Source: Candidatus Nomurabacteria bacterium (GTDB lineage: Bacteria > Patescibacteriota > Minisyncoccia > Phycocordibacterales > UBA9973). Taken from it: a stretch of 64,000 bases of DNA. The notes beneath the pieces are model-generated. The model was given only the letters and a program-made list of their open reading frames with translations, did not search any database and was not told the origin of the DNA. The stretch is taken from NCBI GenBank assembly GCA_023267195.1, contig JAHFNT010000002.1:23830-87829 (forward strand), in the 5' to 3' direction. Position numbers and translations under genes: made by a program. Positions 45,100 through 50,171 of the stretch are shown here, in pieces (position 1 is the stretch's first letter; the number at the start of each line of letters is the position of its first letter).

Positions 45100-46119
45100 T
45101 TAATTTCCGTTGTGCCAAAGTTCGGTTACCGAATCGCCGTTGTGCAAGTTGTCTATAATCTTGGCAAGCAGTTTAGAAGTTTCGATGATTTCAAGTTTTT
45201 TTATTTTTTTCTTGTTTTCCTCTGAAATACAAGAATCACTAAACCAAACAGCCTTGAAAGGCGCCTGGTTTAGATTTTCCACTGCTTCGCCAGAAAGTAT
45301 AGCGTGGGTCGCAGTAAAATATACATCTTTGGCACCATTTTCTTTTAAAGTTTTTAGCGCTTTTACTGCGGTACCGCAAGTGTCTGCCATATCGTCTGGA
45401 ATAATGCAGTTGAAACCTTTCGCCTCCCCGATTACTTCCATGACTTCATTATGATTAATTTTTTTGGGGTCGCGGAATTTATTTATGATAATAATATTTT
45501 CTGGAATTCCTAACTGTTGAGCTAGTTTTCGGCAAGCAGGCGCGGCACCCAAGTCTGGCGCCACGATTTTAAACTTTTCCAAATTAAATTTTTTTGAACG
45601 TATATGTTTTAAAAGAAGATCATTTACGTTTACATCGACAACAGGGATAGTCAGCGGATGCGCATTATAGCTTGAAGGATTATGCAGATGTAAAACTACA
45701 ATCCGATGCGCTCCAGCCATTTGTAAACGCATTGGAACTTTTTGGGAAAGCACAGGTTCTCGATGATTTGAAGGTTTGTCCTGTCTCGCATATGGCAGAC
45801 AAGGCATCACGACAGTAACACGGGCAGGCTCGCCTTGTTTCAAAGCATAAACCAGAGATTCGCATTCATCTAAGTCATTTGCCAATATTTCTTTATTTCC
45901 AAAACGTGGCTGAATAATCAAATAAACATCGCGGTCTCGGACCGACTCGGTATGATGGACTAAATATTCTCCATTTTTAAATTCTTTATAATTAACCGGC
46001 GCCAGCTTATTTTTTAAAAGTTTAGCAACTTTCAGCGCTAGAGTTTGATTGATTCCGTTCGGACTTCCGTATAACTTCAAAGGGTAAGGGTTCAAGTTTA
46101 TCTGATTTCCACTTGTCAT
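45100..46119 (-). CDS. prs: Ribose-phosphate pyrophosphokinase
   Basis: F.NGE, VRDRDV, PYARQDK, APDLGA, DDMADTCGT, ATHA. Confidence 0.92.
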   Translation of the reverse strand: MTSGNQINLNPYPLKLYGSPNGINQTLALKVAKLLKNKLAPVNYKEFKNGEYLVHHTESVRDRDVYLIIQPRFGNKEILANDLDECESLVYALKQGEPARVTVVMPCLPYARQDKPSNHREPVLSQKVPMRLQMAGAHRIVVLHLHNPSSYNAHPLTIPVVDVNVNDLLLKHIRSKKFNLEKFKIVAPDLGAAPACRKLAQQLGIPENIIIINKFRDPKKINHNEVMEVIGEAKGFNCIIPDDMADTCGTAVKALKTLKENGAKDVYFTATHAILSGEAVENLNQAPFKAVWFSDSCISEENKKKIKKLEIIETSKLLAKIIDNLHNGDSVTELWHNGN

Positions 46120-46140
46120 ATTAAAAATACTCTAGCATAA

Positions 46141-46187
46141 AAAAGAAAAAATGGCGACCGGCTTCCGTGAAAGGAAGCTGGCCGCCA
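46141..46187 (-). terminator. Intrinsic terminator of cassette A
   Basis: TGGCGGCCAGCTTCC-TTTCAC-GGAAGCCGGTCGCCA followed by TTTTTTCTTTT; homologous to 46771-46815. Confidence 0.8.
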
Positions 46188-46242
46188 ATACCCAGATAGT
46201 GCTGGACGCACAGCGGGGGGCCAGTTCCGCCGATCCGTGGCC

Positions 46243-46269
46243 CTACCTAAACGGCCAGTAGTGGTACAC
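46243..46269 (-). CDS. 8-codon mini-ORF (M)YHYWPFR
   Basis: AAAGGGAGGTGG SD, then GTG TAC CAC TAC TGG CCG TTT AGG TAG; positional homolog of 46854-46880. Confidence 0.55.
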   Translation of the reverse strand: MYHYWPFR

Positions 46270-46327
46270 TCTTCCACCACCTCCCTTTAAGTGTTTTACT
46301 CTTTATGCTCGAATGCGTCGAGCGGCG

Positions 46328-46528
46328 CTAACTGGGAGAAACGCAGTTCTTGGTATCGAGTTCTACCCTAAGAGAAGCCTCGTCCCTGTTCCCTGTGGGG
46401 TAGCCAAATGTTCCAGTTACCACATTACGACAATCCACACAGGAAAGCATGATGATCCCGGCATGAAGCTTCTCGAGGTAAACCGACTTATTTACGCAAG
46501 AATGTACGCGAGTTTTGGTTTCCACCAT
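46328..46528 (-). CDS. 66-aa small protein, possible zinc ribbon (H-x-C...CxxC)
   Basis: AAGGAG SD 7 nt before ATG; HSC and CVDC motifs; lies inside cassette A. Confidence 0.6.
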   Translation of the reverse strand: MVETKTRVHSCVNKSVYLEKLHAGIIMLSCVDCRNVVTGTFGYPTGNRDEASLRVELDTKNCVSPS

Positions 46529-46635
46529 TGGTCTACTCCTTTTTCTATTGTCGACGAACTAGGTGTTCTCGCGAAACGAGAACACCAGCCTTCGGTGGCT
46601 GGTGTTTGAGTTGTAAGTTATGTTTTTGAGTATTT

Positions 46636-46719
46636 TTACAGCGCAAATATCAGCCTTCGAAGACCTTTGGTAAAGCTGAAAAAGAAATAACTATTTGCTT
46701 GTATGTTGTTTTTATTCAC
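46636..46719 (-). CDS. Putative Phe-rich leader peptide (M)NKNNIQANSYFFFSFTKGLRRLIFAL
   Basis: GTG exactly 6 nt after -10 TATACT (the genome's leaderless spacing); YFFFSF cluster; overlapping alternative hairpins downstream. Confidence 0.6.
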   Translation of the reverse strand: MNKNNIQANSYFFFSFTKGLRRLIFAL

Positions 46720-46725
46720 AAGCAC

Positions 46726-46770
46726 AGTATAGCGTATATTTTAAAAAAGACAAATTTAATTTGTGGATAA
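46726..46770 (-). promoter_or_regulatory. Cassette A promoter: DnaA box TTATCCACA (46762-46770), -35 TTGTCT, -10 TATACT
   Basis: Box, 8 nt, -35 (46748-46753), 16 nt, -10 (46726-46731); spacing identical to cassette B. Confidence 0.7.
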
Positions 46771-46815
46771 ATTTAAAATCGGCGACCGGTCCCATGAAAG
46801 AAACCAGTCGCCGAT
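46771..46815 (-). terminator. Terminator of cassette B
   Basis: ATCGGCGACTGGT-TTCTTTCATGGG-ACCGGTCGCCGAT followed by TTTAAAT. Confidence 0.75.
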
Positions 46816-46853
46816 GCGATGCGGTGGGCCAAGCCGCTTTTACCCCTCCGGCC

Positions 46854-46880
46854 CTAACGCCACTCAGGATCCCAAAGCAT
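46854..46880 (-). CDS. 8-codon mini-ORF MLWDPEWR
   Basis: AAGGGAGGTGATCC SD, then ATG CTT TGG GAT CCT GAG TGG CGT TAG; upstream ORF stops inside this SD. Confidence 0.6.
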   Translation of the reverse strand: MLWDPEWR

Positions 46881-46885
46881 GCGGA

Positions 46886-47062
46886 TCACCTCCCTTCGAT
46901 CCTTGCCTCCGATCCCTTACCAGATAGTCTGAGCTCAGAACGCAGTCTTCTGTTTTCTTCCTTGAGTTGATCAATCTCATTCAACAACTTGTCGATTGCG
47001 TTTCTGAGTCTTTCTCCTTCGGTTTCGCTATTGATCCTGGCAAGCGAAAAGGAATCCCACAT
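46886..47062 (-). CDS. 58-aa coiled-coil protein MWDSFSLARINSETEGERLRNAIDKLLNEIDQLKEENRRLRSELRLSGKGSEARIEGR (not in the ORF track)
   Basis: GGAGGTGA SD; heptad pattern L..EI..LK.EN..LR.EL; manually translated. Confidence 0.7.
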   Translation of the reverse strand: MWDSFSLARINSETEGERLRNAIDKLLNEIDQLKEENRRLRSELRLSGKGSEARIEGR

Positions 47063-47074
47063 GATTTCACCTCC

Positions 47075-47180
47075 AAAGAACGAAAATCAGCACTTCGATT
47101 GCGCTGTTTAATTAATTCCTTGTTTGGTTCGGTAGAAAAAAGAAATCAACAGAATAGCGCAAAAGCGGATGGTTTTGCGC
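47075..47180 (-). promoter_or_regulatory. Trp attenuator-like alternative hairpins
   Basis: 1:2 GCGCAAAA/TTTTGCGC; 2:3 TTGCGCT/AGCGCAA; 3:4 CAGCGC-AATCGAA-GTGCTG followed by ATTTTCGTTCTTT. Confidence 0.65.
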
Positions 47181-47232
47181 CCCACCAAGATTTCGTTAAT
47201 GTATGTATTTTGTAGTTCTGTTTCATATTCAT
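47146..47232 (-). CDS. Putative Trp leader peptide MNMKQNYKIHTLTKSWWGAKPSAFALFC
   Basis: Tandem TGG TGG immediately before attenuator segment 1; directly downstream of trpS-trpR. Confidence 0.65.
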   Translation of the reverse strand: MNMKQNYKIHTLTKSWWGAKPSAFALFC

Positions 47233-47246
47233 ATTCTTTCACACCA

Positions 47247-47274
47247 ATACTCTTGTATCTATGTACTAGTACAT
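47247..47274. promoter_or_regulatory. Putative TrpR operator
   Basis: Palindrome ATGTACTAGTACAT with 8-bp-phased degenerate half-sites (ATACTCTT GTATCTAT GTACTAGT AC) over the predicted +1; adjacent trpR. Confidence 0.55.
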
Positions 47275-47317
47275 GATAACATGATAAAAAAATAATGCAA
47301 ATAATGCATGTGGATAA
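47273..47317 (-). promoter_or_regulatory. Cassette B promoter: DnaA box TTATCCACA (47309-47317), -35 TTGCAT, extended -10 TGtTATCAT
   Basis: Box, 8 nt, -35 (47295-47300), 16 nt, -10 (47273-47278). Confidence 0.7.
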
Positions 47318-47330
47318 GTGGGATAAGAAA

Positions 47331-47627
47331 TTATTTACCCAACTTTTTGAACATTAAATTAAAACCGCCATTTTTATTGCGTAATTCACGAGATCCGCGA
47401 GTGACCGTACTAATACCGAGCCCTAAATCCCCCGCTACGGATCTATGGGTCTCTCCTTTATTTAATTTTTTAACTATTTGCCACCTTAAAGCCATAGTTT
47501 CAAATTCTGCGGGAGTAAAAATATCTATCAAGAACTCTGCCATTAAATTTTTATCACCATCAATTTTAGAAAAAACTTCTATTAATTCTTTCTTATATTC
47601 TGAGATTTTTTTGTTAACGTGCCTCAT
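47331..47627 (-). CDS. trpR: Trp repressor family protein
   Basis: FTPAE...MALRWQIV..L..G..HR.VA..LG.GISTVTRGS..L; follows trpS. Confidence 0.85.
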   Translation of the reverse strand: MRHVNKKISEYKKELIEVFSKIDGDKNLMAEFLIDIFTPAEFETMALRWQIVKKLNKGETHRSVAGDLGLGISTVTRGSRELRNKNGGFNLMFKKLGK

Positions 47628-47637
47628 GTTTTGAACT

Positions 47638-48645
47638 TTAAAAATAATCAATCTGAACTCTCATGCGAACCTGTTTCATTGTTTCTTTCGCAATTTCTCG
47701 TGCGTGCATTGTACCTTTTTCTAATATCTTCATCACGGCATCTTTATCTTTTGCCAATTCTTCCCTTTTTGTTCGTATTGGCGCCACTAATTTCTCTAGA
47801 ACTTCAATTAACCTCTTTTTTATAACAACATCACCAAGTCCACCTTTTTTATATTGTTTTTTCAGTTCTGTAATTTCTTCTTTATTTGGATCAAAGATAT
47901 CTAAATAAGTAAATACAACATTCCCTTCTACTTTCCCGGGATCATTAACATGAATATGATTTGGATCAGTATACATATTCATTACTTTTTTTGAAATTTC
48001 TTCGTAACTATCTGAAAGATAAATCGCATTATTTAAGGATTTACCCATTTTTGAATTTCCATCAATACCAATCAATCTTGGAGTATCACCCACTAGATGT
48101 TTAACATGACTAAAAGTTTCTCCGTAAAAACGATTAAAATCGTCTACAATTTCATTGGTCTGCTCAATCATGGGCTTTTGATCTTCACCAACTGGAACAA
48201 TGTTACTATGACAAAATAAAATATCTGCGGCCTGAGAAACAGGATGCATTAAAAATCCAGCCGGTACATCTTCTCCATAACCTTTGTCTTTCATTTCATC
48301 TTTTACTGTTGGATTTCTCTTGAGCCGCGCTAGTGTTACTAAATTTAGAAACAATACCGTAAGTTCAGCTATTTCCGGAATTTCAGATTGAATAAACATA
48401 GTCGTTTTATTTGGATCAAGTCCACAAGCCAAGTTGTCCAGAACCACTTCTAGAACATTTTCCCTTACTTTAGTTGGATTATCTGCATTAGAAGTTAGGG
48501 CTTGAATATCGGCAACCATATAGAAAGATTTGTCTACCTTACCCTGAAGCTTGACTCTATTTTGTATTGAACCTACAAAGTGCCCAAGGTGAAGTTTCCC
48601 TGTTGGCCTATCCCCTGTAAGTACTATTTTTTGTTTATTTTCCAT
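47638..48645 (-). CDS. trpS: Tryptophan-tRNA ligase
   Basis: TGDRPTGKLHLGH, PVSQAADI, VPVGEDQ, KMGKS. Confidence 0.97.
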   Translation of the reverse strand: MENKQKIVLTGDRPTGKLHLGHFVGSIQNRVKLQGKVDKSFYMVADIQALTSNADNPTKVRENVLEVVLDNLACGLDPNKTTMFIQSEIPEIAELTVLFLNLVTLARLKRNPTVKDEMKDKGYGEDVPAGFLMHPVSQAADILFCHSNIVPVGEDQKPMIEQTNEIVDDFNRFYGETFSHVKHLVGDTPRLIGIDGNSKMGKSLNNAIYLSDSYEEISKKVMNMYTDPNHIHVNDPGKVEGNVVFTYLDIFDPNKEEITELKKQYKKGGLGDVVIKKRLIEVLEKLVAPIRTKREELAKDKDAVMKILEKGTMHAREIAKETMKQVRMRVQIDYF

Positions 48646-48758
48646 GTTTTTATATTATCATACTTCATGGCTTCAGCACAGGGATCTTTCCACATTTTAG
48701 TAACACCATTACGCACTTTTTAGCTTTGACAATTTTATGGCTATGCTAGAATGACGCC

Positions 48759-50171
48759 ATGGCTTCAATATCCGGAAAAGCAAAAATAGTAAAAAGTAAC
48801 AACTTAAGAATTCCACCACAAAGCATTCCTTCTGAACAAGCCGTCTTGGGCTCCATTATGCTCCGCAAGGACGCCATGCACGAAGTGGAAGACATGATAA
48901 CTCCCGATTCTTTTTATGTTGAAAAAAATAAATTGATCTTCCAAGCAATGCTTGATCTTTCGGTAAAAAACGAACCGATAGACATGCTCTCTCTTTCTAC
49001 TAAATTAAGCGAACAGAAAAATCTCGAGAGAATCGGAGGCAACCAATATCTGGCGGAAATTGTAAATACAGTCCCCTCTTCTACTAACGTAAAACACTAC
49101 GCTGACATAGTGCAAAAGAAATATGTGCTTCGCAGTTTGATTGAAGCCGCTGATTATGTTTCCGAGCTCGCCTTTGAAGAAGGTGATGATCATATGGATG
49201 ACATTTTAGATATGGCGGAGAAGAAAATTTTCAGCGTTGTTTCCAGTCCCAAAAACCAAAAATTTGTAAACTTGAAAGATGCTCTACCTGAAGCTTATGA
49301 GCGCCTAGAAAAATTGCATGAAAATAAAGGCATGTTGCGCGGACTGCCGACTGGCTTTAAAGAATTAGATACGATGCTTTCTGGTTTGCAAAAATCTGAT
49401 TTGATTATTCTAGCAGCCAGGCCGAGTATGGGTAAAACTACTCTCGCCCTCGATATTGCGCGCATGTCCGGAGTTTTGCATGAAAAATCTATTTTGATAT
49501 TTTCTCTAGAAATGTCTTCCCAGCAGTTAGTAGACAGAATGCTGTCTGCTGAAAGCCGAGTAAACGCCTGGAATTTACGCACAGGCCGGCTATCTTCTGA
49601 TCATGAATTTTCGCAACTACGCGATTCACTAGACAAACTTGCTAAAGCGCAAATTTTTATTGACGATCAGCCGGGAAATTCAATTGTTCGAATGAAGGCT
49701 CTGTCTCGCCGGCTCAAAGCGGAAAAAGGACTCGATCTTATCGTGGTGGATTATTTACAACTCATGACCACTTCCAAAAATTATGATTCGATGGTCAACC
49801 AAGTTACAGAAATTTCCAGATCGCTAAAATCTTTAGCAAAAGAATTGGATGTTCCTGTACTTGCTCTTTCGCAGCTTAACCGTGCCGTAGAATCCCGTGG
49901 CGGCAAACCCCGCCTATCGGACCTGCGCGACTCTGGATCTATCGAACAAGACGCAGATGTTGTGATGTTCATTCATCGTGAAGATAAAGGCAAAGAAGAA
50001 TCGGAGAAAACGAACATTGCCGAAATTCTTATCGAAAAGCACCGCAATGGCCCGACCGGCAAAGTGGAACTTTACTTTGACGAAAAAACTACAACTTTCT
50101 TAAATCTGGAAAAAAGCAATTTAAGCGAATTTGCTCCGTCGAAGATAAGCGGTGATTTAGATGAATTTTAA
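48759..50171 (+). CDS. dnaB: Replicative DNA helicase
   Basis: PPQS...EQAVLG, ARPSMGKT, FSLEM, DYLQL, LSQL.R, DLRDSGSIEQDAD. Confidence 0.97.
   Translation: MASISGKAKIVKSNNLRIPPQSIPSEQAVLGSIMLRKDAMHEVEDMITPDSFYVEKNKLIFQAMLDLSVKNEPIDMLSLSTKLSEQKNLERIGGNQYLAEIVNTVPSSTNVKHYADIVQKKYVLRSLIEAADYVSELAFEEGDDHMDDILDMAEKKIFSVVSSPKNQKFVNLKDALPEAYERLEKLHENKGMLRGLPTGFKELDTMLSGLQKSDLIILAARPSMGKTTLALDIARMSGVLHEKSILIFSLEMSSQQLVDRMLSAESRVNAWNLRTGRLSSDHEFSQLRDSLDKLAKAQIFIDDQPGNSIVRMKALSRRLKAEKGLDLIVVDYLQLMTTSKNYDSMVNQVTEISRSLKSLAKELDVPVLALSQLNRAVESRGGKPRLSDLRDSGSIEQDADVVMFIHREDKGKEESEKTNIAEILIEKHRNGPTGKVELYFDEKTTTFLNLEKSNLSEFAPSKISGDLDEF

Follow-up and report, generated by a model that had tools for sequence, protein, structure and literature searches.

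The control of tryptophan synthesis by the TrpR repressor together with a leader attenuator is textbook knowledge, and Patescibacteria are regarded as auxotrophs with little regulation. A sequence-only reading of a 64,000-nt stretch of Candidatus Nomurabacteria DNA (hereafter the window) had described both controls directly behind trpR, in front of a gene for a small coiled-coil protein, and had proposed either a relic left after the loss of a trp operon or a co-opted Trp sensor. This locus raises the question of what such a switch is kept for, and what it releases.

A TrpR-type repressor and its operator follow trpS

The window belongs to a 648-kb, 91% complete genome from groundwater. Contigs from two public runs of one study were identical letter for letter over the pieces covered, and one of these runs may be the source sample. 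The minus-strand order is trpS, trpR, the region analysed here, prs and aspS, and all parts of the cassette are encoded on the minus strand. trpS (47638..48645) encodes a tryptophan--tRNA ligase (TIGR00233, 274.7 bits, above the cut-off). Two different TrpRS types were found at this same site within the genus (window 47638-48645; loci L002, L003, L005 and L009), and the sequences suggest a replacement of trpS within the genus.

The repressor gene (47331..47627) starts with ATG in a frame open from 47651. Its product belongs to the Trp_repressor fold family (PF01371, 58.5 bits, above the cut-off) and scored 42 bits against the TIGR01321 equivalog model, below its cut-off of 67.25. The best PDB matches of the TrpR profile were E. 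coli TrpR (E 1.5e-9), YerC-like proteins following at E 3e-6 or weaker. E. coli residues T44, R54, I79-T81 and T83-R84-G85, which we take to be those for Trp binding and operator recognition, align with T38, R48, I72-S73-T74 and T76-R77-G78 and are mostly invariant across 9 homologues; the positions of E. coli L41 and S88 are occupied by Asp and Glu. Among named relatives, the closest homologues came mostly from Ca. Nomurabacteria or Patescibacteria. Searches of genus and family genomes with a 9-sequence TrpR alignment found trpR in 54/151 genus genomes drawn and in 98/400 family genomes (unpublished genome G342 included). These gave 119 trpR loci, of which 83 distinct ones were kept; the 72 with a TrpR score above 130 form the comparison set.

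A sigma-70-type promoter is predicted directly after trpR (47273..47300, minus strand), with the -35 box TTGCAT at 47300-47295 and an extended -10 box TG-N-TATCAT at 47278-47273, and the same layout was found in relatives. The predicted +1 lies about 6-8 nt past the -10 box, inside the 14-bp palindrome ATGTACTAGTACAT (47274-47261), so that the overlap of promoter and operator described earlier held. This palindrome, with its ACTAGT core, is conserved in relatives and unique in the genome, the core GTACTAGTAC being present once in 648 kb. A weight matrix built from the relatives' operators gave a single genome match above 8 bits, the window site at 27 bits; the regulon therefore seems to be one promoter. 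The 8-bp-phased half-sites of the sequence-only reading fared less well. The outer half-sites match 3 of 5 positions each, and no CTAG-like word lies at +/-8. Two operator classes were distinguished, and this word was present in 0/23 operators of the window's class versus 34/34 of the other (on one or both sides). An ACTAGT-type core can reportedly bind two TrpR dimers in tandem, as Lawson and Carey are said to have described in 1993. Duplicate operator or promoter copies were seen downstream of trpR in L033, L044, L075, L081 and L088. In two loci (L064:8322; L088, operator +6), the leader start was, at the predicted +1, fused directly to an amino-acid racemase, an arrangement with operator-only control.

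The Trp leader and its alternative hairpins are conserved

The leader is a 28-codon ORF (47232-47146, minus strand) that begins 38 nt past the operator centre, carries tandem Trp codons at 47187-47182 and has no Shine-Dalgarno (SD) sequence. As proposed earlier, three mutually alternative hairpins can be folded on the same strand: 1:2 (47156..47181, -11.9 kcal/mol), the 2:3 antiterminator (47100..47161, about -15.6 kcal/mol) and the 3:4 terminator hairpin with its U-rich tail (47075..47106). The antiterminator consists of an outer helix and a 10-bp inner helix pairing 47149-47140 with 47121-47112, which had been overlooked. The window terminator is weak (-8.1 kcal/mol), with an interrupted U tract. 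Compared with shuffled sequences, the single folds were modest (z -1.0 for 1:2, -1.8 for 2:3 and -2.7 for 3:4), so the strong evidence for an attenuator is comparative. An Rfam scan of 45800-48800 gave only chance matches, with none to the Trp_leader or Phe_leader models up to E 5.

Among the 72 comparison loci, 57 carried the attenuator; the script had found 58, and the pick in L076 was removed as being in fact a minigene (see below). Trp-Trp was kept in 48 of the 56 ATG-started homologous leaders and a single Trp in the other 8, which answers the check on conservation of the Trp pair that had been suggested; none of the 56 had an SD. The leader begins 7 nt past the -10 box in 31/56 relatives, as in leaderless messages, and leaders with this spacing are predicted to be leaderless. 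Covariation was analysed in 39 copies of similar length; of 54 copies folded, 15 were omitted, mostly ones with long loops. The 2:3 helices were 88.8% paired with two-sided changes in 7/16 pairs, a value reached in 0/500 shuffles, and 1:2 plus 3:4 together were 86.3% paired with two-sided changes in 9/16 pairs; 1:2 by itself had 89.9% of cells paired and two-sided changes in 5/9 pairs. Register-slid controls dropped to 37-54% paired, and the covariation score was unreached by any shuffle, a test that is inflated by kinship among the copies.

The attenuator was also kept after trpS in four loci without trpR (L143, L163, L169 and L172). In more distant Patescibacteria (L092, L095, L096 and L099), Trp-Trp codons and a terminator directly followed trpR with no ACTAGT operator, and in L099 this region led into trpB. 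Relatives with trpB, trpBA, trpE/G, trpD or trpC behind the cassette or operator, together with the covarying helices, give good support to the E. coli-type dual control proposed for the locus. Collectively, we regard the TrpR/attenuator cassette as almost certainly real.

The switch heads a slot of changing gene content

The earlier statement that the window's switch controls no trp enzyme was upheld. None was present in the locus, and family searches of the 91%-complete genome found no TrpA, chorismate-binding enzyme (trpE), IGPS (trpC) or TrpD. The single PALP protein of the genome was considered as a TrpB and rejected, as by eye it resembles cysteine synthase. TrpA was above the cut-off in 9/212 genus genomes (G342 included), compared with trpR in 54/151, and no TrpA match was found in any of 50 genomes, of unspecified completeness, picked from loci without trpA cargo.

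Across species, the trpR-aspS stretch is a slot with widely differing gene content. Trp or aro enzymes occupied it in 18/72 loci, as trpB with or without trpA, a TrpB2-like gene (judged by eye), trpE/G, trpC, trpD, an aro operon or prephenate dehydratase. The remainder held other genes, such as an amino-acid racemase, PEP-utilising enzymes, small ORFs, proteins of 220-560 aa of unknown function paired with histidine phosphatases or peptidases, or nothing. A complete trpEGDCFBA operon, which the sequence-only reading had suggested looking for in relatives, was found in none of the related loci examined; partial trp/aro sets are what the 18 loci hold. Recurrent Trp-regulated cargo without a Pfam or NCBIfam match was seen at L065:8539-9645, L022:3273-4076, L023:8898-10346, L036:702-1982, L051:8442-9110 and L078:8938-10608, often beside a histidine phosphatase or peptidase.

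If the switch were a neutral remnant left by a trp operon since lost, trp genes would be expected still to stand at this site in relatives, as they do, and individual elements might look worn, as does the L040 terminator (-3.8 kcal/mol). A dead element would, however, drift like silent sites, and the attenuator was retained in 34/42 non-trp loci (two added by eye). Between the window and 21 non-trp relatives, stem and control columns were 78% identical, compared with 44% for the loop and 34% for four-fold dnaB sites, which are saturated; against 7 trp relatives, the values were 76%, 49% and 36%. Stem conservation of this order therefore indicates an attenuator under selection rather than a decaying relic. 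On a DnaB tree of 57 rows, built by a quick method and with few strong branches, Trp cargo was scattered, requiring 12 changes versus a shuffled mean of 13.4, of which strong branches force 4. Many recent parallel trp losses could possibly also give such pairwise conservation, which is unparsimonious; the relic would require these losses to be independent, and the differing trp subsets between species suggest turnover instead. Altogether, a neutral relic appears very improbable, and the attenuator is very probably still selected in trp-less species. Between the two options of the sequence-only reading, the relic is thus disfavoured and the co-opted sensor favoured. The test for selection on the cassette in trp-less species is new here.

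A Trp-rich minigene lies behind the 58-aa ORF

The first predicted ORF behind the switch encodes the 58-aa predicted coiled-coil protein (46886..47062, minus strand; SD GGAGGTGA at 47074-47067) that had been named as the regulated gene. The ORF is not the conserved target but a near-orphan: one homologue, P0001, 69% identical, was found among 1.84 billion representatives. Coiled-coil Pfam matches were weak and all below the cut-off. Atlas matches, which were short proteins without names that had about 140 of 256 features in common, were set aside, as was a link to a relative's 57-aa ORF (E 0.003, a match at coiled-coil level). A loose family of helical ORFs of 43-72 aa was seen between attenuator and minigene in L006, L061, L066, L153 and L172. 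The small cargo ORFs had a Met-Trp start in 4/17 cases, and some ended in Gly-Trp motifs.

Nor is the 58-aa ORF the whole predicted output. The predicted transcript runs on through an 8-codon minigene, absent from the sequence-only reading, to a 16-bp intrinsic terminator (46778..46815) that closes the predicted Trp-regulated RNA. The minigene (46854..46880, minus strand) has Trp at codons 3 and 7, and its perfect SD, again GGAGGTGA (46893-46886), overlaps the stop of the 58-aa ORF. In P0001, the 58-aa homologue is fused to the minigene. Recoding of the TGA between the two was considered and rejected, since the fused P0001 also needs a frame change and the minigene is preceded by an SD of its own. 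Past the minigene stop lies a 3' motif (46821..46854, minus strand; GGGCC ... GCGG-N3-GGCCCACCGC) conserved across an alignment of 13 copies. It is predicted to form either of two short helices that exclude each other, with covariation not beyond chance; a pseudoknot was rejected because of its geometry, the third loop being 1 nt long, and because covariation was lacking. When the whole module was folded, the window's minigene terminator formed by itself.

It is the minigene behind the 58-aa ORF that recurs as cargo of the slot. Among SD-led ORFs of 3-20 codons, at least two Trp were present in 10/58 within 3 kb downstream of trpR, compared with 2/194 elsewhere in the loci; the genome Trp frequency is 0.9%. 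A DNA pattern without the Trp codons gave 14 metagenome matches, 8 being chance matches in GC-rich DNA and 6 real (4 distinct), and all 6 real ones were in the slot and Trp-coding. The minigene pattern gave 0 matches in viral contigs, and 2 of its 9 genus matches were discarded as unrelated. A sequence-only model, R1, was built from 13 copies and includes the Trp codons, so that its matches lean to Trp. R1 matched 18/150 genus genomes; the 9 matches read out all had at least two Trp and either adjoined trpS or lay in the slot. In 149 genomes of the order, R1 found nothing convincing.

Counted by eye, there were 27 distinct copies, of which 23 were short with at least two Trp, 2 had one Trp, 1 (L068) had none and 1 ran on. 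In the usual form, a Trp near the start is followed by acidic residues and by another Trp one or two codons ahead of the stop. The L162 copy stands behind trpS without an attenuator, and the L136 copy lies at a contig end that hides its context. In L057, L072, L074 and L143, the minigene came directly behind the attenuator. Altogether it was present in about 13/72 loci, most trpR loci being without one. An operator-like palindrome was seen 3' of the minigene terminator in L081 and L168. The literature search found no paper on this minigene, and the recurrence of the Trp-minigene module as terminal cargo is new here.

A second, Phe-type attenuator and minigene module follow

Further downstream on the minus strand lies a second attenuator of Phe type (46581..46753), with its own promoter (46753-46726), a Phe-rich leader (46725/46719-46636) and a terminator (46606-46581). 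It folds like an attenuator, and 20 matches were found in 19 loci, one leader variant (L039) being Tyr-rich. The Phe leader is probably leaderless from a GTG start. Behind it are an SD-led 66-aa ORF (46328..46528), for which Pfam/NCBIfam-type searches gave no family match, and a second minigene module (46152..46284) made up of an SD (46284-46278), an 8-codon aromatic-rich ORF with one Trp (46269-46243) and a terminator (46187-46152). Its 3' motif is related to that of the first module, and the module scored 25.6 bits with R1, whose training set includes it.

Small genes behind the switch carry Shine-Dalgarno sequences in a genus without the anti-SD

The 16S tail of the window genome ends without CCUCC, and an anti-SD was present in 0/30 genus 16S ends read, this genome included. 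The A/U-rich tail was near-uniform across genus copies (L178:1495-1525, minus strand; L179-L208). In the genome, a 5-nt SD preceded 7/396 long ORFs. Behind the attenuator terminator, by comparison, an SD-led start was found in 24/48 loci with non-trp first genes, versus 1/6 with a trp enzyme first and 3/35 before aspS; the L024 trpE also has a 5-nt SD. In the minigene alignment, the SD columns rank with the best conserved, and attenuator leaders had no SD. The minigene SD cannot pair with the genus 16S tail, so such pairing would not account for translation of the minigene by the cell's own ribosomes. Anti-SD loss has been published for part of Parcubacteria (Tsurumaki 2022, PMC9297842), and the tails of this genus resemble those anti-SD-less ribosomes; the conserved SD-led small genes found here, in contrast, are unmentioned in the passages of that paper covered.

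How the switch may work, and what else could explain it

On balance, we think it probable, with some reserve, that a conserved TrpR operator and ribosome-dependent Trp attenuator head a gene-swapping slot and still act as a starvation switch, releasing an RNA with a second Trp sensor. By analogy with E. coli, Trp-loaded TrpR would cover +1. A ribosome stalled on the leader Trp codons would mask segment 1, allowing 2:3 to form and RNA polymerase to read on; a ribosome reaching the leader stop would mask segment 2, and 3:4 would terminate. The predicted released RNA is ~490 nt long and carries the 58-aa ORF and the Trp-rich minigene. The weakest step is that the minigene would be made only under Trp scarcity. 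Its product would then be poorly made, so the stall itself would be its likely use. Such a stall would keep uncharged tRNA-Trp on ribosomes as a signal for the Rel enzyme, or would switch the 3' motif beside the minigene stop. The genome does encode a Rel enzyme, in which HD, synthetase and TGS domains were recognised; it is short (L177:469-1899, minus strand), with no further C-terminal domain matched. We judge it an even call whether selection in this lineage acts on the minigene as the output. That it works by stalling is a tentative and rather doubtful proposal, and it may have the role of a tandem attenuator.

Part of these data would also be expected if the slot simply captured genes, the switch being kept for any useful arrival while the 58-aa ORF and the minigene hitch-hike in SD-led cassettes without sensing Trp. 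The cargo indeed varies widely by species and includes genes such as trpBA salvage, racemase, peptidase and phosphotransferase, SD-led starts are frequent in non-trp-first loci (24/48), and the 58-aa ORF is a near-orphan. Gene capture leaves unaccounted for, however, the Trp enrichment of the mini-ORFs, their near-confinement to the slot and the loci with only a minigene behind the attenuator, and we consider it unlikely. It is far less likely again that the released attenuator RNA or the leader peptide has a role in trans and is selected for it, as with Sinorhizobium rnTrpL/peTrpL, for which parts of PMC6614838 and PMC7298713 provide the precedent. The attenuator persists in loci with no long gene behind it (L057 and L040), which would suit such a role, but antiterminator and terminator are both intact, which points to read-through control.

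The SD puzzle could be accounted for if, on Trp starvation, the epibiont made an SD-led RNA for the ribosomes of its host. Such a message would fit the missing anti-SD (0/30), the scarcity of SDs on long ORFs (7/396) and the highly conserved minigene SDs beside native-coupled leaders with none. There is no known RNA export route, though, a G/A-rich tract could promote internal initiation with no pairing involved or serve as a protein-binding site, and one trpE (L024) also carries a 5-nt SD; we hold this explanation to be highly doubtful. A combined version, in which the trp switch was rewired to a starvation-only RNA with the SD-led minigene as a stalling signal, possibly read by host ribosomes, also seems quite improbable.

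Comparison with known systems and significance

The favoured reading, a starvation switch heading the slot, has its closest counterpart in E. coli trpEDCBA, with which it shares the repressor family, an ACTAGT core over the promoter, tandem Trp codons, exclusive 1:2/2:3/3:4 hairpins and a leader stop inside segment 2. Unlike E. coli, the locus has no Rfam Trp_leader match, a leader without SD, trpR adjacent and, in most species, no trp enzyme downstream; its operator is one 14-bp palindrome, whereas, according to passages of PMC13762905, E. coli trpO has two copies of ACTAGT spaced by 8 bp. As described in parts of PMC7755916, the trpRBA salvage operon of Chlamydia trachomatis likewise belongs to a reduced, host-dependent genome, and trpR stands beside regulated trpBA in L059, L071, L072, L079, L085 and L123. 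The signal there is relayed by Trp codons inside YtgR, in contrast to the classical leader attenuator here, and most species here are without trpBA. With Sinorhizobium rnTrpL/peTrpL, the locus shares the use of a trp attenuator beyond its own operon; trpE(G) is still downstream there in the portions covered, whereas trans action here is hypothetical. A literature search of main texts, with subscription journals mostly outside its coverage, found no published account of TrpR or of attenuators in Patescibacteria.

These data indicate that Trp and Phe attenuators and a repressor are maintained by selection across a whole genus, although most members are without the enzymes. The switch points to genes that epibionts likely turn on when the amino-acid supply fails, several unknown enzyme families among them. 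Being shorter than 500 nt, the module lends itself to tests in E. coli. A conserved SD before a regulated minigene, in a lineage without the anti-SD, makes it directly testable which ribosomes translate SD-led genes in these genomes.
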